Positions 29,156 to 43,848 of a DNA stretch of 64,000 nucleotides are shown one piece after another. The stretch lies in IMG/VR virus record IMGVR_UViG_3300049783_000824, positions 1-64,000 of that record; one strand, given 5' to 3'. Position numbers and translations under genes: made by a program. This stretch comes from a virus. The stretch's first letter is position 1, and every line of letters begins with the position of its first letter. Below the pieces are notes generated by a model that saw only the letters and a list, made by a program, of their open reading frames with translations, searched no databases and was not told the DNA's origin.

Positions 29156-29667
29156 AAGTTATTGATGTTAAAAAACTTAGGGAAGACATCCGTAAGATAA
29201 AACTAAAGACATTCAATGACCTTAATGAAAGTCTAGATAACTTAGATGATATACTAGATGAATATAAATTATTACATAAGGTTTCAAAGGATTTAGTTAA
29301 TCTTAAGGGTGCTGACCTTATTGAAGCTTTAGTCTCACAACCAAATGATTATCTATTTTATAGAACATGTACCAATTACTTGAAAAAGATACTGGACTAC
29401 ATGGAAAGCTTGCTGCGATATGAAAGGGCTAAAGAAGCTGCAAAGATTCGTGAAACCAAATCAAGAGCATCTGATTTGAATGACAGGGCTATTAGTCAAT
29501 TGATAGACGGTAAAGAGTACATCCAAGATATAACTATAAATGTAATTAAAGTTCGTGAGGTCTATGACCTACACTTAACTATAATTGAAGCCTATAACCA
29601 GAGAGGGTATGCCCTCAACAACATAACTAAGGCTAGGGTAGCTGAAATACAAAACATTATACTATGA
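29152..29667 (+). CDS. uvsY: Recombination mediator (UvsY-like)
   Basis: Helical; C-terminal AYNQRGYALNNITKARVAE; lies between uvsX and uvsW. Confidence 0.65.
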   Translation: MKVIDVKKLREDIRKIKLKTFNDLNESLDNLDDILDEYKLLHKVSKDLVNLKGADLIEALVSQPNDYLFYRTCTNYLKKILDYMESLLRYERAKEAAKIRETKSRASDLNDRAISQLIDGKEYIQDITINVIKVREVYDLHLTIIEAYNQRGYALNNITKARVAEIQNIIL

Positions 29668-31139
29668 AAGCAAAAATAAAAATAATAGATGAAGTTAACA
29701 TTGTAGTATCCAATCTACTTGATAGGGACATAAGTAACCTTGCGGATATGTTTGCAGTATACACTAAGGGCTTTAGGCATAATGCCAGTTATAAGCTTGG
29801 TAGGTGGGATGGTAAGATAAAGTTCTTCCATGCAAATGGTAAGTCCTATGTAAAGCTTCTTCCAGAGATAGTCAAGTACCTCAGTAACAATGATTATACC
29901 ATTGATATAATTGACAATCGAGTTAATGTTGATTTAACTATTGATGAAATAGACGAGAACTACCTTAAGGATAAGGGATATGATGTTGTCCTTGGCCCAC
30001 ATCAGGTACGTGGAGTAAACGCACTAACTGAAGAGGGTGGTGGTATATTTGAAGGTGGGACTGGGGCAGGAAAAACTCTTATGACAGCGGTTCTATGCCA
30101 TTTGTATGAAGAGAATCTTAAGTTTAAATGTATTATAATAGTGCCATCATCTGACCTTATTGATCAGACCAAGGATGAGCTTGTAAAATATGGTGTTGAT
30201 GTTGGTGAATACAGTGGAACTATGAAAGATATTAACCATACACACGTTGTGAGCACATGGCAAGCTCTACAGAATAACAAAGGTATCATTGGACAGTTTA
30301 AGGCAGTGATTGTAGATGAGTGCCATGGCGTAGCTGGGGCCACACTACAGGAGATTCTAAATGAACATGGTGCTGGGTGCTTAGTGAGGTTAGGTCTTAC
30401 GGGAACCCTTCCAGAAGCCGATATAGACATGATGGCAGTTACTGTAACACTTGGGCATGTAGTTGAAAAGGTCGAGGCATCTGAGCTTATAGCTAGAGGA
30501 TGGCTTGCAGAATTGAACTTATACACCTATGAGTTGGTCGAAGATGTGCGTAAAGATTATCATGAATTCTGTGAAGAGTATCCACAGGAATCTGCTGACA
30601 TTACTTACAAAGAATACAAAGCAAACTTCTTTGCTGATTTCCAATCGGAAAAGAAATATTTACAAAAGAATCCAAATAGACTTGAGTTTCTTGCTAGGCT
30701 AATTAATAAGCCAAAAAAGAATACGCTGATACTGGTGCCTAATGTTGAGTTTGGTAGAACCTTAGCTAAAATGATACCAAACGCGGTGTTCATTTATGGT
30801 AAAGATGTAAAGGCTGTTCGTAAAATATTGTATAGTTCATTTGATGATAAGGATGACATTGTTGCAATAACGACATTCCAATTAGCATCAACTGGATTGA
30901 ATATAAGACGTATTTTTAATTTGTTTTTAGTTGATCCGGGAAAGAGCTATGTTCAAATTATCCAGAGCATTGGTCGTGGGTTACGGAAGGCACACGATAA
31001 AGATAAGGTAAATGTGTATGACATATACAGTGACTTTAAATTTTCCAAGAGGCATGCAGCTGCAAGGAAGAAGCATTATAAATTGAAGAATTACCCGTTC
31101 AAAAAGAACAAGATAGACTATCTGCCATTAGTGGCATAA
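29664..31139 (+). CDS. uvsW: SF2 DNA helicase UvsW
   Basis: GRWDGKI, GTGAGKT, STWQAL, VDECH, GLTGT, STGLNI, QSIGRGLR. Confidence 0.92.
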   Translation: MKAKIKIIDEVNIVVSNLLDRDISNLADMFAVYTKGFRHNASYKLGRWDGKIKFFHANGKSYVKLLPEIVKYLSNNDYTIDIIDNRVNVDLTIDEIDENYLKDKGYDVVLGPHQVRGVNALTEEGGGIFEGGTGAGKTLMTAVLCHLYEENLKFKCIIIVPSSDLIDQTKDELVKYGVDVGEYSGTMKDINHTHVVSTWQALQNNKGIIGQFKAVIVDECHGVAGATLQEILNEHGAGCLVRLGLTGTLPEADIDMMAVTVTLGHVVEKVEASELIARGWLAELNLYTYELVEDVRKDYHEFCEEYPQESADITYKEYKANFFADFQSEKKYLQKNPNRLEFLARLINKPKKNTLILVPNVEFGRTLAKMIPNAVFIYGKDVKAVRKILYSSFDDKDDIVAITTFQLASTGLNIRRIFNLFLVDPGKSYVQIIQSIGRGLRKAHDKDKVNVYDIYSDFKFSKRHAAARKKHYKLKNYPFKKNKIDYLPLVA

Positions 31140-31157
31140 CCATAACAGGATAATAAC

Positions 31158-31655
31158 ATGGTAATATCAGATGAAAATTCATACCCAATACTTATTGATG
31201 GTATAGATACGGCAACACTAACAGATTATTTTTGGGTGTTACAACTACAACTTGATAACGAAATGGACTTCATGCTTCAGAAGCTGGAAATGTTTGAAGA
31301 ACAAACAACACCAACTTTAGAGTTTTTAATTGGTGACTACTTAATAGAGGCACCCACTAACTGGAACATACTAGTTTATTCGGAAGAGACTGCCCAGTTG
31401 GATATTGTAGAAGTATCAGATTTAGCTAGATCAAAGTTCACAGCTGTGGTATACTTGCACAATAAAGGCAAAGTTGTACCCGGTCCAATAACTGTTGTTG
31501 ATTATCACCGTGAAGCTCACGTTAGAAATCCTTCACTAAATAAACATACAATGTTATGTCATCACGTTGGCCCAGATGCATGGGTATGCCTAGCACCAAC
31601 AGACAACTATAATAAGTATTTGAAGAATTCTCTAGTTGGTGATCTGCTAGAATAA
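31158..31655 (+). CDS. Hypothetical protein
   Basis: AGGA SD; beta-rich 165 aa. Confidence 0.6.
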   Translation: MVISDENSYPILIDGIDTATLTDYFWVLQLQLDNEMDFMLQKLEMFEEQTTPTLEFLIGDYLIEAPTNWNILVYSEETAQLDIVEVSDLARSKFTAVVYLHNKGKVVPGPITVVDYHREAHVRNPSLNKHTMLCHHVGPDAWVCLAPTDNYNKYLKNSLVGDLLE

Positions 31656-31670
31656 CAAGGAGTTATAATA

Positions 31671-32144
31671 ATGGCCGCAAAAAAGAAAAAAAGTACAGTA
31701 GCTAAACAAGTATCGATAAGTGAATTACAATCCTTCATTGAAGGTGCAACCGCATTTAATTCAGATGATTGGCACCCCAATAAGGAACAATGGACTAGAA
31801 TTGTTGAAATGATTATGACAATTAAACCAGAAGAGACTGTTGTTGTGAACAATGTACCACATGTTGTGAATGTACCACAACAAACTCCACAAAGACAGTT
31901 TCTACCATCAACGTTTGGTAGTGGTGATGTGGATGGTGATGGTTATGCCCATAATTCTTCAGTAGCGGATGGTGGATTTGAAGATTTAAGATCAAAAGCA
32001 CCTAGGACTGATATGCGAAAAATTAAGGCTGAGAAAACCGGGATTGGTGGTGTAGATGATAATGGTATCACAGTATCTGGTATAAAAGTTAAGACACCTA
32101 ATGTAGATTCATCAAAAGGTGACTATGACACACCATTTGCGTGA
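31671..32144 (+). CDS. Hypothetical protein
   Basis: AAGGAG SD; SFIEG...WHPNKEQW motif. Confidence 0.6.
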   Translation: MAAKKKKSTVAKQVSISELQSFIEGATAFNSDDWHPNKEQWTRIVEMIMTIKPEETVVVNNVPHVVNVPQQTPQRQFLPSTFGSGDVDGDGYAHNSSVADGGFEDLRSKAPRTDMRKIKAEKTGIGGVDDNGITVSGIKVKTPNVDSSKGDYDTPFA

Positions 32145-32700
32145 TATAACGCAATTCAGTACCCAACTGAATGGTAGGCTAATGTGTGGGGACGGTGATT
32201 CGATTGTAGAGTTACCATTCTTATACGACCATCTACTTAACGGTGGTTTGGGTTCTGATGTTTTCATATCAAAAAAAGACTGCAATTCACCAGAGGTTGA
32301 ATTTTATAACAAAAGCTTTAGTGAAGAGAAGGTTAATTATAAAAAAGAAATGAAGGATACCTCATTAGATTGGAATATTCCTAAAAGGTATAAAGAGTTG
32401 GATGTTTATGCCTATTTGCTCAATAAACTTAAGGCTGAAGTAAAGAGTTGTGAGTTTAGTGATGATGAGCTTAGGGTTAGATTTTACCGTGTTAAGATGG
32501 AGTTGCGTATTTGGGAAAAAAGAAATTTACTAGATATGTTGCGCTCATTAATTTTTATAGTAAATACACTAGAAGAACAAAAAATTATATGGGGTACTGG
32601 GCGTGGAAGTTCATGTGCATCGTATGCCCTATACCTTATAGGGTTGCATCAAGTAGATAGTGTTGAGTATGAATTAGACATTGGTGAGTTTTTTCGCTGA
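32119..32700 (+). CDS. dnaE: DNA polymerase III alpha-like N-terminal fragment (split mini-DnaE, part 1)
   Basis: WGTGRGSSCASYALYLIGLHQVDSVEYELDIGEFFR matches DnaE VGPGRGSGAGSLVAYAL.IT.LDP..FDLLFERF. Confidence 0.8.
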   Translation: MTMTHHLRDITQFSTQLNGRLMCGDGDSIVELPFLYDHLLNGGLGSDVFISKKDCNSPEVEFYNKSFSEEKVNYKKEMKDTSLDWNIPKRYKELDVYAYLLNKLKAEVKSCEFSDDELRVRFYRVKMELRIWEKRNLLDMLRSLIFIVNTLEEQKIIWGTGRGSSCASYALYLIGLHQVDSVEYELDIGEFFR

Positions 32701-32740
32701 AGGTATATTATAAATAGTAACATAATGATGGGGTTTAAAA

Positions 32741-33160
32741 ATGGCAAAGAAAAGAAAAGTTAGTAGTGCACTTGGTGAAACTGTAGACTTTGATCTAATG
32801 AGAGTTAAGCAGAATATCGAAAATCGTGATAAGCCAGACGGTGTTGAAATGCGAGAAAAGTATATCGACATCCGTCGTCGTCGTAATCCACGAAGAAATG
32901 TGGCAGATTTGGTTACTGAACAGCGAAGTAATGAAACTGACGCACGTGATAAAATACAGCAAAGCAAGAAGAATAAGCAAGAAGCATTGGCTAAACTGGA
33001 AAGTGAAGCTAAACTAGAAGCACCAACGGATATCACGGTAGAGGATGTTGTTGATACCACGGTATCTACTGAAAAGCCAGACGATACTGAGATACTACAA
33101 GCTTCACCTAAGAAGAAAATTGTAAAGCGTACCCAACCTGAGGAGAACTCAGACAAATAA
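32741..33160 (+). CDS. Hypothetical late protein
   Basis: TATAAATA at 32709-32716; basic IRRRRNPRR segment. Confidence 0.6.
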   Translation: MAKKRKVSSALGETVDFDLMRVKQNIENRDKPDGVEMREKYIDIRRRRNPRRNVADLVTEQRSNETDARDKIQQSKKNKQEALAKLESEAKLEAPTDITVEDVVDTTVSTEKPDDTEILQASPKKKIVKRTQPEENSDK

Positions 33161-33489
33161 TGGAAGCTAATATGCGTAAAGAAATTGACCCAGTACATAA
33201 CCAGATTTTGTTCCAATTTGTAGAAGACACAACTAGGGGCAAGTTTAATGAGAAATCCAACGGGGGCATTCTACTTGTTGAAGATAGTAGCAAGCAAGTG
33301 GAACATTGTAGATGGGGCACGGTAGTATCAACTGGACCGAATGTTAAGGACGTTGTAGAGGGTGAAGTTATTCTCATAAACGCCCTAATGTGGACTAATG
33401 GTTTTAGGATGACAGACACCGATTACTGGATAACTTCTGAACCCGAAATAATTGCTAAATGGGTCGATGACAATAGTCTTCCTAGTTAA
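33160..33489 (+). CDS. groES: GroES-like co-chaperonin (gp31 analogue)
   Basis: DPVHNQIL, SNGGILL, WGTVVSTGP, V..GEVIL, EIIA. Confidence 0.8.
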   Translation: MEANMRKEIDPVHNQILFQFVEDTTRGKFNEKSNGGILLVEDSSKQVEHCRWGTVVSTGPNVKDVVEGEVILINALMWTNGFRMTDTDYWITSEPEIIAKWVDDNSLPS

Positions 33490-33501
33490 ATAAATATACC
33501 C

Positions 33502-34386
33502 ATGAGATCTTATATTTTCCCCACAATAGTAATGTTGGCAGCATTGGCACTCGCAGCTGGTGCAGCCTTATTTACTATACTTGGATTTCGAGAATTATTT
33601 GAACCGTCATTAAAGATAACCTTAATGGCAGCTTCAATTGAACTCGGTAAGATTGTTGCCGTATCTGCACTATATCAGTTCAAGGATGTTCTGGGGTGGA
33701 TATCAAAACTATTCCTACTATTCCTAATTATTGTTGCTATGGCAGTTACTTCTATGGGTGTTTATGGATACCTATCAAGTGCATACCAACGGGATTCGTT
33801 GGCAATAACCCAGAACAGTGCTAAGCTTGAGCTTTTAAGTAGCAGGAAAGCAGCCTTAGAGCAACGCCTAGGCGGTATGGATCAACAGATAGCAAACGTA
33901 CCAGAGGCATACGTGTCGAAGCGTATGGAGCTTATATCAACGTTTAAACCCGAACGTACATCAGTATTGAATGAACTGGACGTGCTAGAACAACAAAACC
34001 TAGATTTAACACTAGATAAGCTTAGCAAAGAGACCGAATTTGGTGCAATATTGTTATTAGCTAACTCAGTAGATTGGCTAGATGCAGATAATGCAATGTT
34101 GTATTTTATACTGGCAGTCATATTCATCTTTGACCCGATGGCAATAGCCTTGACGTTTGCGTCTAACGTAGGGTATGCTAAGGCTGCTTCAGACACAGCT
34201 AAGAAAAATGATACTGTTGAACCTGTAGTTGTTGACCAACCCACATCTAGTTTAAATGATGATGAAGTTAAAAGCATAGCTACAGCCCTTAGTGACTTGG
34301 CAAATGAAGTTAAAGAAATGAAGAATTCCACCCCAAAGAACAATCGTTCTGAAATATTAGATAACATGAGAAAACAAAAAGCTTGA
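33502..34386 (+). CDS. Membrane protein, three N-terminal TMs, coiled coil, C-terminal TM
   Basis: IELGKIV, TSMGVYGYLSSAY, IFIFDPMAI motifs. Confidence 0.65.
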   Translation: MRSYIFPTIVMLAALALAAGAALFTILGFRELFEPSLKITLMAASIELGKIVAVSALYQFKDVLGWISKLFLLFLIIVAMAVTSMGVYGYLSSAYQRDSLAITQNSAKLELLSSRKAALEQRLGGMDQQIANVPEAYVSKRMELISTFKPERTSVLNELDVLEQQNLDLTLDKLSKETEFGAILLLANSVDWLDADNAMLYFILAVIFIFDPMAIALTFASNVGYAKAASDTAKKNDTVEPVVVDQPTSSLNDDEVKSIATALSDLANEVKEMKNSTPKNNRSEILDNMRKQKA

Positions 34387-34411
34387 TAACCCAACCATAA
34401 TCTTGTATAAT
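34383..34411 (+). promoter_or_regulatory. Sigma70-like promoter for the clamp-loader cluster
   Basis: TTGATA-17 nt-TATAAT with TG upstream of -10. Confidence 0.6.
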
Positions 34412-34436
34412 CGTCCCCTTATAAGGGAATTGATAT

Positions 34437-35369
34437 ATGTTAAAAAAACTATGGGTACGATCATACATGCCCACCAAACTTGAAGATTATGTTTTTCAAA
34501 ATGAACACAACAGGGTTCAATTTACCAAATTCGTAAAAGATAAATCCTTCCCCCATTTGCTGTTGAAAGGACATAAGGGTTCGGGCAAGACTACCATGGC
34601 CCTTATCCTTAAGAATGAACTCGGCATACTCGACGGTGATTTTAAATTTCTAAACTCAGCGGATGATAACTCTATTAATGTGGTTCGTAATGTTATTAAA
34701 CCTTTTAGTGAATCAATGCCTCTTGGTGAATTTAAGGTAGTCCTATTAGACGAAGCTGAGTTTTTAAGTACAGAAGCACAGAAAGCATTATGTGGTATGC
34801 TGGAGCGATACTCAGATACTGTCAGGTTTATATTAACATGTAATAGACCACACAAGATAATACCTGAACTCAAATCACGGTGTACAGAATTCTCCTTTAA
34901 TGAATTTGATAAGAAGTCAATGGCAACACATGTATATAAAATCCTGAAGAACGAGGGTGTTACGGTGTCCAGTGTTGAACTGCTTATGGGCTATGTTAAT
35001 GAAAGCTACCCAGACATGCGTAAGATACTGCAAAACCTAGAGACTAACGTTATTGATGGGGTATTAGAGCCAGCAAATGGCAGTGATGAGAAAAGCCAAC
35101 TCCTTTTGGACATTGTTGACCAGCTAAGTGCAGGTAAATGGTTAGAGGTTAGGGCCGGTATTGTACAGAACATTGAGGAGCATGAATGGGATGAGATTTA
35201 TAGATTTCTATACGATAACTTAGATCAAATTGAAGGCTTTGATAACACAGACAATTGGAAGTGTGGTATCATTATACTTGCAGATCATATCAGGTTTCAT
35301 TATCAGGTTGCTGACCCTGAAATAAATTTCAGCGCATGTATGATAAGACTATCAGGAGTTATTAAATAA
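34437..35369 (+). CDS. gp44: Clamp loader ATPase subunit (gp44/RFC-like)
   Basis: LWV..Y.P, PHLLL.G..GSGKTT, LLDEAE, RFILTCN, LKSRC, PDMRK. Confidence 0.9.
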   Translation: MLKKLWVRSYMPTKLEDYVFQNEHNRVQFTKFVKDKSFPHLLLKGHKGSGKTTMALILKNELGILDGDFKFLNSADDNSINVVRNVIKPFSESMPLGEFKVVLLDEAEFLSTEAQKALCGMLERYSDTVRFILTCNRPHKIIPELKSRCTEFSFNEFDKKSMATHVYKILKNEGVTVSSVELLMGYVNESYPDMRKILQNLETNVIDGVLEPANGSDEKSQLLLDIVDQLSAGKWLEVRAGIVQNIEEHEWDEIYRFLYDNLDQIEGFDNTDNWKCGIIILADHIRFHYQVADPEINFSACMIRLSGVIK

Positions 35370-35689
35370 TGACAAGAGAATTACAATTAGATGAAGACCA
35401 AGCAAGACTAGACTTAGATAACGTATCTAAGTTTTCTGACAAAAATCAACGTCTGGCATGGAGACGTAAGCGAACAAAAATGGATGAGTTGTTAGCAAAA
35501 ATTCTGCCATACGAAGAACAAATCTTGGAGATAATCTACGAGAAGCAATCAATTATGGATGATATTGAAGTCGTGCGGAAGGCAATGGTAAAAGAATGTG
35601 TTCACCCTGCTGACTATCTTGTGCATAAGGGAAACTTTATACTGTGCAAATTTTGCAAAAACAAAATTGTAATTAACAATGGCAAATAA
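35369..35689 (+). CDS. Hypothetical protein with C-terminal CxH...CxxC
   Basis: ECVHP...LCKFCK. Confidence 0.55.
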   Translation: MTRELQLDEDQARLDLDNVSKFSDKNQRLAWRRKRTKMDELLAKILPYEEQILEIIYEKQSIMDDIEVVRKAMVKECVHPADYLVHKGNFILCKFCKNKIVINNGK

Positions 35690-36137
35690 GCTTGATATCT
35701 TCAAGGTATTGGAAAAGGTAGACGATTTTGACATCGACTACTTTAATGGGCTAACTGATGATGAGAAGAAGTCGTTAGCACCCTACGTACTTATGTTGTG
35801 GATGTCAGGTACTAAGTCTCAAACCCAGCTGATACAACTAAATGTGTTTATGAATTCATTAGTATTTAAGATTCCACCTGAACATAGTGGTTTGTTATAT
35901 AAGTTAGCATGCGTTGCTAGTGATGGCAAAAGAAAGAAGTACAATTGGGTAGGTAAGAAAACCAAAAGCAAGAAATATGCAACGGCAACCGATGTGCTAA
36001 GTAGATATTATAGATGCAGTACGACAGAAGCTCTTGGGTATATTGGTATTCTTAACTATGATGATGTTGCTGAAATTGCCATGGAACTTGGTGAACAGGA
36101 CGATACACTGAAGAAAATCAAAAAAGAGATGAAATGA
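35679..36137 (+). CDS. Clamp loader small subunit (gp62-like)
   Basis: LDIFKVL, APYVLMLWMS, KKYNWV, YYRCS..EA pattern; close to gp44. Confidence 0.55.
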   Translation: MANKLDIFKVLEKVDDFDIDYFNGLTDDEKKSLAPYVLMLWMSGTKSQTQLIQLNVFMNSLVFKIPPEHSGLLYKLACVASDGKRKKYNWVGKKTKSKKYATATDVLSRYYRCSTTEALGYIGILNYDDVAEIAMELGEQDDTLKKIKKEMK

Positions 36138-36820
36138 GTAGTAGTGGTACATATTTTGAATGCAAGCACTGTTTAAAAAAGTTCATAAGTGAACGTTATT
36201 ATAACAAACATGAATGTGAACAAATGAAACGGTTTAAACTCCTTGGGACAAATAGGGGCAGTATTGCATATTCATGTTATTGCTCTTGGGCAACGCATAA
36301 AGGATATCGTAAGCCAACAGTAGACCATTTTATAGACTCAAGAAAATTCAAAGCATTTTTTAGGTTCATTGAATTCTCAAATAAAATGGCATTACCTGCA
36401 AGGGATAGATACATTGAGTACATGACTAGCTTAGGTATTAATCCTGTTGACTGGACAAAGAAAATTGTATACGAACATTACATAACTGAATTTGATAATA
36501 TCTTTTCCCCAGAGGATCAAGCTGCGATAACTGTTGATACCGTATTTGAACTCGCTAGAATATACGAATGTGAGACCGATGACATATTCACATACATGGA
36601 GGCTAACACGCTACTGCAATTAGTTCAAGCGAAAAAACTTTCACCTTGGGTGTTGCTATTTTCAAATAAGTTTATAAGTTTTATTCAAAATGATATGACC
36701 CGAGAACAGAGAATCATGTTAAAGACTAACATGGACATAACTTCATGGGAGGTGATATTCAAAAAATCAGTAAAGACGGCAAAGAAAATGCAGACCTATG
36801 TAAATGCGTTGGGTATTTAA
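36134..36820 (+). CDS. Zinc-finger hypothetical protein
   Basis: FECKHCLKKF...KHEC; LSPWVL. Confidence 0.65.
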   Translation: MSSSGTYFECKHCLKKFISERYYNKHECEQMKRFKLLGTNRGSIAYSCYCSWATHKGYRKPTVDHFIDSRKFKAFFRFIEFSNKMALPARDRYIEYMTSLGINPVDWTKKIVYEHYITEFDNIFSPEDQAAITVDTVFELARIYECETDDIFTYMEANTLLQLVQAKKLSPWVLLFSNKFISFIQNDMTREQRIMLKTNMDITSWEVIFKKSVKTAKKMQTYVNALGI

Positions 36821-37056
36821 CCGCAACCCCAGTTACTGATTGGGTAGATTCTACTTGTTGAATGGGGTGGTATTTGGAACTGTGAATAACCAGCCCAACA
36901 ATTAACCCATTGGGGTGTGTGGTTAATAATACGCATATATGGCATCTGCATACCATATTTGTCGAACACGGGGACTTGTTGACAACAACTATAACTATTT
37001 GACAGTGGTGAAAAGCATAGTAGGGTTATAAGTATGAGTAGTGATATTTTATACAT
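36817..37056 (-). CDS. Small exported Cys-containing protein
   Basis: Signal peptide MYKISLLILITLLCFSPLSNSYS. Confidence 0.5.
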   Translation of the reverse strand: MYKISLLILITLLCFSPLSNSYSCCQQVPVFDKYGMQMPYMRIINHTPQWVNCWAGYSQFQIPPHSTSRIYPISNWGCG

Positions 37057-37448
37057 TATTCGAGTTCTCCAGTTGAAGGAAGTCCCTTTGAAAGGATTCC
37101 CGATGATATGATTGCTGACCGGCGTACCGATAAGGCTTCGGAATTTTGCTTTATTTGGTCGTATATTCGTTGTGAATTTAATGACATGGGTTCAACTGGC
37201 ACACCAGTTTGGACAGATGTTGCAGTTGTTGCAGCTACATCAGACTCTATCTCACTCAGCCTATAGTCATTGAGTGACAAGTGGAGTTCTATGCTTCTGA
37301 ATTCACTCAACACGTTAGCACTGAGTATATCATTTTTACTAGCAAGATTATTGTTAGCCCAAAAAATTGCACCAGATATTGAACTAACGATTGTTATAAC
37401 ACCTATTATCATAGATATGTTGTCGTTGATTGATTTTAGTATGGCCAT
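37056..37448 (-). CDS. Single-TM membrane protein
   Basis: TM ISMIIGVITIVSSISGAIFWA. Confidence 0.55.
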   Translation of the reverse strand: MAILKSINDNISMIIGVITIVSSISGAIFWANNNLASKNDILSANVLSEFRSIELHLSLNDYRLSEIESDVAATTATSVQTGVPVEPMSLNSQRIYDQIKQNSEALSVRRSAIISSGILSKGLPSTGELE

Positions 37449-37509
37449 AGGTTATGATTATCCATTATTATATAAATATATATATGTTATTTACACTGAA
37501 GGTTAACAA

Positions 37510-38169
37510 ATGAGAGATATAGAAAACTGGATAGATATAGACACAAAACGGGTTGGATTGCTATCCAAATCTGATTGGACACAATTACCAGATAGTGGGC
37601 TTAGTAAAAGCTGTGTTATTGAATGGAAGGTCTGGCGTGGTGCTATGCGTAAAGTCAATAAGCATATCTACGATCAACCGTTGGTGGCAGTTGTTGTTAT
37701 TAAAGAGTTGCAGGACAGTTTACCCAAAAATGTATACGCTGATAACACTGTGCAGGTAGCATCTGACGGCCCAATTATACCACAACCTAAAGAGAAAACA
37801 ATAGACGACATCCGGGACTTACCTGAAGGTAAAATTTACGGCAAGACTAAACTTGAGGTTGAATATAGAAGTAAAATACTTAAGGCATCACCCCCATTGG
37901 AATTATCATTCCTATACTCAGAACGTCTTAGTCAGGCTATTGACTACTTATCAGACAACGGTACTGCGTTCCCGTTGCTTGACGTTCTTTCTGAAAGTTT
38001 GGGCAAGTCCACGGAAGAAGTAGCAGTTAGTATACTCAAAAAGCAAACAAATACTATCAATAGTTTTGCAACCATTGAACGTGGCTATATCGAATGCTTG
38101 AAAGACGTAAATAAATCTGCTACAATGTCTGATATAAAAGAGGCTCTAGTTAAATTCGATGGATATTGA
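37510..38169 (+). CDS. Tail-fibre assembly chaperone-like protein
   Basis: R..LLSKSDWTQLPD...EWKVWR..MR motif; TATAAATA at 37471-37478. Confidence 0.55.
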   Translation: MRDIENWIDIDTKRVGLLSKSDWTQLPDSGLSKSCVIEWKVWRGAMRKVNKHIYDQPLVAVVVIKELQDSLPKNVYADNTVQVASDGPIIPQPKEKTIDDIRDLPEGKIYGKTKLEVEYRSKILKASPPLELSFLYSERLSQAIDYLSDNGTAFPLLDVLSESLGKSTEEVAVSILKKQTNTINSFATIERGYIECLKDVNKSATMSDIKEALVKFDGY

Positions 38170-38728
38170 TATAGACCTGATACCGGGCGTAGACCCACGT
38201 GAGTTGTTTAGAAATGCTATACCAGCATCGATGGTAAATGATGGTGTGTTGAAGAAGCACCCCGTAGGATATTACTTCCAAGATATACCTGTAGATAAAG
38301 TAACTGGGCTATCAGCAATACCATACAAAGAGTCTGAAGACTTCGGGTATTATAAAATAGACCTACTCACCGTTAATATACTCAAATCATTTGACTCAAA
38401 AGAAGAAATGGTTAGGCTGCAGAAGATAGAACCTAATTGGAATTTATTAAAAGATGCGAAAGTTGTTGAAAAGCTATTCCATCTTGGTAAGCACTACAGT
38501 GTAATCAATAAGGTAAAACCAAAAAGTATTCTAGCATTAGCTGATGTGTTTGCATTAATCCGACCAAACAAAAGACCACTGCTTGATAAATACATTGAGA
38601 ACCCAGAGAAATACCGAACTGAGTTGTACACTAAGCGTGCACCGGAAGATATGCGCAAAGCACACGCTATACCATATGCAATCTTGATTGTATTACAATT
38701 ACATTTAGTTGAGCAAGGAAGACTATGA
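38159..38728 (+). CDS. dnaE: DNA polymerase III alpha-like catalytic fragment (split mini-DnaE, part 2)
   Basis: MDIDIDL, KHPVGYY, GYYKIDLL, KPKSI..LA...ALIRP, RKAHAIPYA match DnaE PDFDVDF, KHAGGVV, GLVKFDFL, QPDCF...ALFRP, NKSHSAAYA. Confidence 0.8.
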   Translation: MDIDIDLIPGVDPRELFRNAIPASMVNDGVLKKHPVGYYFQDIPVDKVTGLSAIPYKESEDFGYYKIDLLTVNILKSFDSKEEMVRLQKIEPNWNLLKDAKVVEKLFHLGKHYSVINKVKPKSILALADVFALIRPNKRPLLDKYIENPEKYRTELYTKRAPEDMRKAHAIPYAILIVLQLHLVEQGRL

Positions 38729-42644: not shown

Positions 42645-43249
42645 TTATAGGGGTATCTGGTGCACAGGGTCAAGGCAAATCAACACTTATAAGTGATTGT
42701 GATGCTAGTAACTCTGGTGGGCGTAAGTTATGGCTACAGACCTCTAGAAAACTACTCATCGATTGGGGATATACATTGGGCGACGTTAATAAGTATGCCC
42801 CATTAAAAGTTAAATTTCAAGATGAAATTATTAAACGACATGAGAAATCACTAATCTGGGCACTTGAACAAGCATCAGAAGCTAAGCATGTGTTTTTATC
42901 TGAAAGAACATTTGCAGACATATTTACTTATGCCCTTGCATCAATAGGCCCACACAATGAATATTCCAATTGGCTAGATGAGTATGCAGAAAAGTGCTCA
43001 GAAGCTCAAAAGAAGTATTTCCATACAGTGTTATTTCTGCAGGGCAGGGAATATGTCCCGGAGGATGACGGTGTTAGGTCTGTAAATATTCATTTTGCAC
43101 ATCTTGCAAATTCAATGATATTACATTATGCTGAAACATTCTCGAATAATGACTCGTTACTTGTTGTTAATGTGTCTGATAGGAAATCAAGAGTTCAACA
43201 CTTAAATGCTAGAATAGCTAAAATAAAGGAAGAAAATAAATGGGCATAA
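42641..43249 (+). CDS. P-loop NTPase / nucleotide kinase (NadR/AAA_28-like)
   Basis: IGVSGAQGQGKST, SERTFAD, EDDGVR. Confidence 0.7.
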   Translation: MIIGVSGAQGQGKSTLISDCDASNSGGRKLWLQTSRKLLIDWGYTLGDVNKYAPLKVKFQDEIIKRHEKSLIWALEQASEAKHVFLSERTFADIFTYALASIGPHNEYSNWLDEYAEKCSEAQKKYFHTVLFLQGREYVPEDDGVRSVNIHFAHLANSMILHYAETFSNNDSLLVVNVSDRKSRVQHLNARIAKIKEENKWA

Positions 43250-43848
43250 AGATACACGACATAATTGCAATAGACTGTGAAACTAGTGGCATGAACCTAA
43301 ATGCAAACAGATGCCTTAATCAGAATTCTGTAGCACATGGATACCAAGCAGTATCATGGGGCATTGTTATTACCGACACTGAAACCTTTAAGGTTAAGGA
43401 TGAACTATACGTCATGATCAAATGGAATGGTAAATCCAAATGGAATGCAAAAGCTGAGAGTATACATGGCCTTAGTAAGGAATACCTTGAAGAACATGGT
43501 ATGGATGAGGAAGACGCAGTTGTTGAAATCATGGAGTTCCTGATGAAGCATCTGGATATTACAGCACCACTGTATTGCCTTGGGCATAATGTCGTATCGT
43601 TTGATATTCCTTTCCTGAAAGATTTGTTCACTCGATATGAGTTATCAGACATTAAGTTTGGGCATAGACACCTAGACACGTTTGCACTTTCTATGGGTAC
43701 GGTACAGGAGTTTGATTCTGACACACTATTCAAACGTGTTGGGCTTAAGGATAGGGGTGAGCATAACGCATTAGAAGATGCAAAAAACGCACTTGAAGTG
43801 TATCGGAGACTAAATAAAGCATGGACACAGATGTTAGCGAAAAGTTAG
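43240..43848 (+). CDS. DEDDh 3'-5' exonuclease (DnaQ/epsilon-like)
   Basis: IDCETSG, IHGL, GHNVVSFD, LDT, HNALEDA. Confidence 0.88.
   Translation: MGIKIHDIIAIDCETSGMNLNANRCLNQNSVAHGYQAVSWGIVITDTETFKVKDELYVMIKWNGKSKWNAKAESIHGLSKEYLEEHGMDEEDAVVEIMEFLMKHLDITAPLYCLGHNVVSFDIPFLKDLFTRYELSDIKFGHRHLDTFALSMGTVQEFDSDTLFKRVGLKDRGEHNALEDAKNALEVYRRLNKAWTQMLAKS

Follow-up and report, generated by a model that had tools for sequence, protein, structure and literature searches.

Jumbo phages of group 2.2 have been reported to encode a 'minimal split DNA polymerase III alpha', the halves of which correspond to a nucleoside triphosphate (NTP)-binding subdomain and a Mg2+/template-binding subdomain, and which is found beside a family B polymerase, with a role in one-strand synthesis or repair having been suggested (Iyer et al. 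2021, Viruses 13:63, PMC7824862). The locus described here is a member of this group. It lies in the IMG/VR virus record IMGVR_UViG_3300049783_000824, of which positions 1 to 64,000 were analyzed (i.e., 64,000 nucleotides (nt) of one strand, referred to as the window), and it encodes two stand-alone proteins of ~190 amino acids (aa), belonging to PHROGs 11127 and 11778 and referred to as the N-half and the C-half, respectively. An earlier model-made annotation of this DNA, based on its letters and open reading frames (ORFs) only (the sequence-only reading), had surmised that similar fragments might already be annotated in related jumbo phages, and both the above-mentioned report and the two PHROG families bear this out. 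The split enzyme is real and has been known from sequence since 2021, the present locus being one more member. The modest additions made here are the conserved bracketing of the clamp-loader genes by the halves, fused and permuted forms of the enzyme, a conserved N-terminal subdomain of 84 residues, and models of high confidence whose residues are mapped onto E. coli alpha.

In common with the other enzymes of group 2.2 (i.e., RaK2/121Q/PA5oct/XacN1/Atu_ph07-type phages), the enzyme examined here is without PHP or other Pol III domains, and its break separates the part of the palm that binds NTP from the part with the Mg2+-binding DxD. Group 2.2 phages combine a T4-like replisome with a family B polymerase, and the window itself contains a UvsW-like helicase and clamp-loader genes. 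PMC7824862 speaks of 'distantly located genes', whereas at the present locus and at 48 of the 80 IMG/VR loci chosen on the C-half (environmental relatives) the N-half is situated only 3.6–9.7 kb upstream of the C-half, on the same strand and never adjacent to it. The text of that report available here mentions neither fused or permuted forms nor the 84-residue N-terminal subdomain.

When compared with the bacterial C-family polymerases DnaE and PolC (E. coli Pol III alpha, PDB 2hnh and 5fkv; G. kaustophilus PolC, PDB 3f2b), the split enzyme shares both motif order and fold, including the Pol-beta-like palm, the GRGS loop, the DxD motif with the third Asp, the KxD strand, the fingers RP motif, and the KxHxxxY helix with its steric-gate His. 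In contrast to the ~1160 aa of DnaE in one chain, it totals ~380 aa in two chains, and it lacks the PHP domain, the thumb (alpha 433–510), the beta-clamp-binding motif, the (HhH)2 and OB folds, and the tau-binding end. About one third of the fingers is retained, and an additional N-terminal subdomain is present. A C-family polymerase derived from two distant genes is likewise found in cyanobacteria, whose DnaE is the textbook example of a protein with a natural split intein. The cyanobacterial halves carry intein pieces, are ligated to a full-length chain, and are broken in the fingers region, whereas here intein pieces are lacking, the break is inside the palm (i.e., FERF/DxD), and the enzyme is minimal.

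Both ORFs were found on the + strand, and all motifs quoted for them in the sequence-only reading are present in their translations (Table 1). The N-half ends with WGTGRGSS..SY.LYLIG...VD...Y.L...EFFR, followed by its stop codon, while the C-half starts with MDIDIDL and subsequently carries KHPVG, YKIDLL, ALIRP, and KAHAIPY. The N-half ORF stands as originally proposed, yet its start codon probably does not: because of an AAGGTG box 5 nt upstream and the match to the database protein P0005 (191 aa, 100% identical to the N-half), the true start is most likely the ATG at 32125 (yielding 191 aa) rather than the GTG at 32119. Since the N-half overlaps the end of its upstream ORF by 20 nt and the C-half that of ORF 37510–38169 by 11 nt, both genes are embedded in operons.

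Homology of the N-half to DnaE is apparent at several levels. Pfam PF07733 (Pol III alpha) matches its residues 122–191 (E 5e-6, above the gathering score), PHROG 11127 ('DNA polymerase') covers residues 15–193 (E 2e-42), and the full-length DnaE family PHROG 405 places residues 87–186 at its positions 326–429. Moreover, a profile made from 65 N-halves matched E. coli alpha residues 289–392 (PDB 2hnh). An AlphaFold 2 (AF2) model built from the alignment reached a predicted local distance difference test (pLDDT) score of 92.7, and its residues 85–193 could be superimposed on alpha 278–393 (VIA-align Z 13.2, root-mean-square deviation (rmsd) 2.3 Å, 106 residues aligned). Among the 65 homologues, the invariant columns included G159, G161-R-G-S164 (i.e., the GRGS loop), and F191. 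Residues 1–84, of which 11–84 were modeled with a pLDDT of 89–97, have no counterpart in the DnaE alignment and are not covered by any structural match; searches with the whole model returned no structural match for them, with the atlas yielding sub-threshold leads only.

For the C-half, PHROG 11778 ('DNA polymerase') covers residues 1–186 (E 2e-59), PHROG 405 places residues 49–148 at its positions 578–691, and Pfam gave a weak fingers match only. The corresponding AF2 model (pLDDT 94.2) was superimposed over residues 1–189 on alpha 401–783 (VIA-align Z 10.9, rmsd 3.3 Å, 182 residues aligned), while hhalign paired H34 with H511, K66/D68 with K553/D555, and R135-P136 with R639-P640 of the E. 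coli protein. The columns D2, D4, D6, H34, K66, D68, R135, P136, H169, and Y173 were invariant over 50 homologues, and K167 was kept in at least 90% of these. Catalysis by the E. coli enzyme relies on D401, D403, and D555, and H760 is a presumptive steric gate that is invariant in Pol III alpha (PMC8485763). A residue-by-residue equivalence between KAHAIPY and KSHSAAY, and therefore of H169 with H760, would follow from motif order.

Structural searches pointed to the same family for both halves, as the top 11–13 Foldseek matches were all Pol III alpha, DnaE1, or PolC. In a Foldseek-independent search of 48,161 chains, a Z of at least 8 was reached by C-family polymerases only, the next best chain having a Z of 4.5. 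NCBIfam DnaE models placed the halves consistently, at scores far below the cut-offs of these full-length models, and single-sequence searches of the PDB with the halves yielded nothing meaningful.

The translation of dnaE from E. coli MG1655 carries GRGS at 361, FERF at 388, DFDVDF at 401, KHAGG at 510, KFD at 553, FRPGP at 638, and KSHS at 758, which places the break between FERF and DxD and agrees with the motif order given in the sequence-only reading. Its list of missing and reduced domains was also supported by structural ranges and spacing. The PHP domain is gone because the structural match begins at alpha 278 (nor did the halves match any PHP family in Pfam), and the thumb is gone because D4 and H34 are only 30 residues apart, versus 108 for D403 and H511 of E. 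coli. With the C-half ending near alpha 783, nothing is left of the clamp-binding, HhH, OB, and tau-binding parts. Within the fingers, the spacing between R135 and K167 amounts to 32 residues, versus 119 in E. coli. A single polypeptide is not encoded, as the ORFs are 5.5 kb apart and the halves are split in 80/80 IMG/VR relatives and ~95 phage records.

The sequence-only reading had further proposed that the two chains together form a Pol-beta-like palm in which the catalytic Asp residues are kept. This agrees with the structural ranges, the invariance of D2/D4/D6/D68 and G161–S164, and the co-occurrence of the halves (see below), and the pair is also predicted to bind. Upon co-folding, the interface score ipSAE (interaction prediction score from aligned errors) was 0.93 (0.92–0.93 over three runs), the best of three controls scoring 0.00; 58 of 80 solved complexes attain the mark applied, as do 2 of 110 mismatched pairs. 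The pLDDT of the partner was 93, and the runs agreed in at least 98% of contacts. In the predicted complex, the GRGS loop (residues 157–159) contacts C-half residues 5–8 of the DIDID strand, where the error is least, and the end of the N-half meets the start of the C-half in the manner of a single-chain palm. The 84-residue subdomain is predicted to pack on the palm sheet of the C-half (interface residues 7–28 and 79–87) and may be a latch stabilizing the split enzyme.

Although a word-based search for longer relatives of the C-half gave none, an exhaustive profile search gave three. In P0324 (375 aa) and P0374 (336 aa), the N-half comes first and is joined to the C-half by a DnaE-like linker, with P0374 being without the 84-residue N-terminal subdomain, while P0390 (398 aa) is fused in C-then-N order and thus represents a circular permutation. 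The catalytic residues are kept in all three. In a C-half tree of 107 sequences (FastTree, midpoint-rooted), each fusion branches at a different point among the stand-alone proteins (local support being 0.94 and 0.97 for two of the three), which suggests that they arose by independent re-fusion. These metagenomic proteins were each found once or twice, on contigs of 2.4–8 kb, and scans retrieved no locus for P0324 in viral contigs nor for P0374 in metagenome contigs, so that an assembly or gene-calling artifact may also lie behind them.

Both halves are widespread and well conserved. Among the candidates scored, the N-half family comprises 751 clusters and the C-half family more than 300 clusters at 90% identity, nearly all homologues of either half being 180–200 aa long, and with E of 1e-3 or lower, 373 representatives of the C-half were retrieved by the exhaustive profile search. 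The functional residues are invariant across 50–65 homologues, down to 35% identity. Gauged by this invariance (the nearest relatives, at 67–86% protein identity, being probably saturated at silent sites), both halves are under purifying selection. Co-occurrence across phage genomes, which the sequence-only reading had put forward as a check on a two-chain enzyme, was found as well: tblastn detected the N-half in 93 and the C-half in 96 phage records from the same host genera, including annotated genes of XacN1, 121Q, PA5oct, and Atu_ph07. Next to the 48 IMG/VR loci with both halves within 10 kb, 5/5 long contigs without a nearby N-half carry it 10–33 kb upstream of the C-half, and the halves co-occur in every relative with enough sequence. 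In cultured phages, 30–180 kb lie between them. Near-identical DNA was not found in the phage collection. As a separate observation, the stretch 32119–38728 occurs in full in two ice-metagenome runs, which may be its source, and partly in another ice run and a marine run, with no RNA run among them.

Table 1. Features of the split polymerase locus and its surroundings (positions in the window; E. coli numbering refers to Pol III alpha)
Feature	Position	Strand	Remarks
UvsW-like helicase, upstream of the N-half	29664–31139	+	PHROG 16, E 8.5e-73
Gene for the N-half (minimal split Pol III alpha)	32119–32700	+	193 codons from GTG 32119
N-terminal subdomain, N-half residues 1–84	32119–32370	+	conserved R20, D25, G26, N64, K75
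Palm part of the N-half, residues 85–193	32371–32697	+	corresponds to E. coli 278–393
GRGS loop G161–S164, triphosphate-binding motif	32599–32610	+	corresponds to E. coli G361–S364; invariant
Conserved block between the halves	33160–36820	+	PHROG matches
GroES-like co-chaperonin	33160–33489	+	PHROG match
294-aa gene of unknown function	33502–34386	+	between the halves
Clamp-loader large subunit	34437–35369	+	PHROG match
Clamp-loader small subunit	35679–36137	+	PHROG match
228-aa gene of unknown function	36134–36820	+	PHROG 11058
C-half gene, 189 aa	38159–38728	+	corresponds to E. coli 401–783 minus the thumb and much of the fingers
D-I-D-I-D (D2, D4, D6)	38162–38176	+	corresponds to E. coli D401, D403, D405; first two are catalytic metal ligands
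K66-I-D68	38354–38362	+	corresponds to E. coli K553-F-D555 (hhalign); D68 is the third catalytic Asp
R135-P136 of ALIRP (fingers)	38561–38566	+	corresponds to E. coli R639-P640 (hhalign)
KAHAIPY (K167, H169, Y173)	38657–38677	+	putatively E. coli KSHSAAY 758–764, with H169 as steric-gate His760
Stand-alone DEDDh (DnaQ/epsilon-like) exonuclease	43240–43848	+	Pfam RNase_T, E 6e-13; PHROG 192

The halves form a constant bracket around the chaperonin and clamp-loader genes (Table 1). Wherever they are within 10 kb of each other (49/49 relatives), the chaperonin and the two clamp-loader genes are enclosed by them, and in these same loci the 228-aa gene is found there in 46 and the 294-aa gene in 44. 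The order of N-half, chaperonin, and clamp loader is kept in 121Q, where the C-half is 31 kb away and adjoins a primase, a gp41-like helicase, and UvsW, while in XacN1 the clamp loader is downstream of the N-half and a UvsW-like helicase occupies the same position relative to the N-half as it does here. A family B polymerase, which the sequence-only reading had suggested looking for, was present as an ORF of 866–1010 aa in 7/7 complete or near-complete relatives. The 228-aa and 294-aa genes gave no Pfam, NCBIfam, or PDB sequence match, and the sliding-clamp Pfam families PF09116 and PF02916 were not found in the contig; the 228-aa protein could be a diverged sliding clamp. Its length, as a side observation, is that of T4 gp45.

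The gene for the DEDDh exonuclease lies 4.5 kb downstream of the C-half, and its counterpart in Xoo-sp13 and CM1 is found at ~2.3 kb from the C-half. It was considered as an obligate partner and rejected as such, being detected at the sensitivity used in only 11 phage records versus ~95, and in 16/80 loci; within this sub-clade, and only there, it might serve the mini polymerase as a proofreader.

Three further + strand genes lie close to the halves. Upstream of the N-half, a 165-aa gene (31158–31655) belongs to PHROG 11279 (unknown function, E 1e-34) and has no Pfam match at E up to 0.1; its sequence gave no indication of a Hint fold. Right after the N-half, a 139-aa gene (32741–33160) has a sub-threshold match to PF12362 (Pol III gamma/tau C-terminal domain, E 0.085), which is probably noise. 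The 219-aa gene preceding the C-half (37510–38169; PHROG 4697) shows an N-terminal, sub-cut-off match to a phage tail assembly chaperone (PF16778, E 7e-5), which is odd within a replication block, and is kept in only ~15/80 relatives.

Taken together, we consider it likely that this locus encodes a minimal split Pol III alpha that acts as a non-covalent heterodimer, rebuilding the palm and reduced fingers beside a T4-type family B replicase. The two ~190-aa chains would associate by folding, without intein or splicing, and would share one active site, to which the N-half would supply the GRGS loop and the 84-residue subdomain wrapping onto its partner, and the C-half the three catalytic Asp residues, the KxD strand, and the fingers helix with the steric-gate His. 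Neither chain would be active alone. From the invariance of the steric-gate His and of the fingers motifs on the template side, we infer a template-directed enzyme using deoxynucleoside triphosphates (dNTPs); as thumb, clamp-binding, and OB domains are lacking, its synthesis would be short-patch, distributive, or partner-dependent. The enzyme would work within the replication/recombination machinery of the phage, possible jobs being the extension of primers or of recombination intermediates (D-loop) and gap filling. The combination of PolC with DnaE in Bacillus, where a main replicase is likewise accompanied by a second, DnaE-type polymerase among replication genes, offers by functional analogy a plausible model for such primer or gap extension, although the main replicase is of family B here and the second enzyme is without accessory domains.

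Several points weigh against this interpretation. To our knowledge, no C-family polymerase functions without a thumb and duplex-binding domains, so that templated synthesis may need a further partner, or the real activity may differ. As for the profile matches to DnaE by which the sequence-only reading proposed to judge the halves, that of the N-half was obtained (see above), whereas a C-half profile had no significant match among PDB sequences, and hhalign of the C-half against the single E. coli sequence gave a sensible alignment at low probability. The C-half is therefore assigned mainly by fold and motif order. The predicted binding may partly reflect likeness to solved structures of single-chain DnaE, and the prediction implies that the halves fit as they do in DnaE, which falls short of binding in the cell. 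Furthermore, the 73.7-kb contig of this virus itself, which is only 21% complete, gave no match to PF00136 (family B), and literature searches brought up no member that had been tested biochemically or genetically.

Other explanations were weighed against the same data. An extreme reduction from ~1160 aa to ~380 aa could be taken as a sign that the halves are decaying or non-catalytic remnants with a structural or regulatory role. The catalytic and nucleotide-binding residues are nevertheless invariant over the homologues compared, lengths are fixed, and metagenome clusters number in the hundreds; this conservation pattern therefore rules out decay, leaving remnants barely credible as an explanation. 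A joining of the ORFs into one chain by a split intein, trans-splicing, or an intron-like insertion, as brought to mind by the cyanobacterial DnaE intein, has a next to negligible probability. The N-half ends at alpha 393 and the C-half starts at 401, without unaligned residues at the break, which leaves no spare intein piece of ~100 or ~35 aa and confirms the earlier impression that intein ends are missing. Start codon, ribosome-binding site, and stop codon are moreover present for each ORF separately, and the gap holds 3.6–9.7 kb of conserved same-strand genes, or 30–180 kb in cultured phages. The sequence-only reading had envisaged that activity could be timed by subunit supply. The N-half would then be expressed along with the uvsW block (early/middle), whereas a putative late promoter of T4 type would drive the C-half, and the enzyme would be present late only. 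The box in question, TATAAATA, does occur at 37471–37478, and the two genes are in different places in all relatives, with distances of tens to hundreds of kb between them in cultured phages. The box precedes, at 32 nt, ORF 37510–38169, whose end overlaps the C-half start, rather than the C-half itself. Moreover, the motif is not clearly enriched (14 copies in the window versus 9.2 ± 3.0 expected, with 5/100 shuffles reaching 14), another copy directly follows the N-half at 32709, and among 80 relatives it is located within 100 nt upstream of the C-half in none and within 800 nt in only 4. According to the PA5oct transcriptome paper, middle and late regions are hardly separated. This proposal could thus not be upheld, and we regard such timing as quite improbable.

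Two further alternatives concern what the heterodimer does and how it arose. In line with the speculative 'non-standard job' favoured by the sequence-only reading, the heterodimer might be a nucleotidyltransferase with a non-replicative job, such as untemplated tailing, production of a nucleotide signal or decoy against host defence, or priming with ribonucleoside triphosphates. Only the Pol-beta-like nucleotidyltransferase core is kept, the thumb, clamp-binding, and OB domains that hold primer-template being gone, the phages already own a complete family B replicase, and the Pol-beta fold is known to include many non-polymerase transferases. A signaling or tailing enzyme would nonetheless have no need for the dNTP- and template-contacting fingers residues R135-P136, K167, H169, and Y173, which are kept, and the genes are inside a replication/recombination block in which they bracket the clamp-loader operon in 49/49 loci, so that a non-replicative job appears distinctly unlikely. 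A chaperonin/clamp-loader cassette could also have landed in the FERF–DxD linker of an unsplit mini-DnaE and split its gene, the resulting heterodimer being a clamp-loader-linked second replisome polymerase. A Pol III-style alpha/clamp-loader partnership would then be superimposed on a family B replicase, resulting in an asymmetric two-polymerase fork as in PolC/DnaE bacteria, with the 84-residue N-terminal subdomain as a latch replacing the lost covalent link. This scenario fits because of the constant bracket (49/49 loci), the putative independent re-fusions, and the predicted wrap-around interface, and we deem it unlikely in this specific form.

If the minimal split Pol III alpha is indeed active, its ~380 residues would make it far smaller than the ~1160-aa Pol III alpha, and it would reveal the minimal needs of a C-family active site while providing a natural two-chain active site without an intein. 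It would also prompt one to ask why T4-like giant phages maintain a bacterial-type polymerase as a second enzyme beside their family B replicase.

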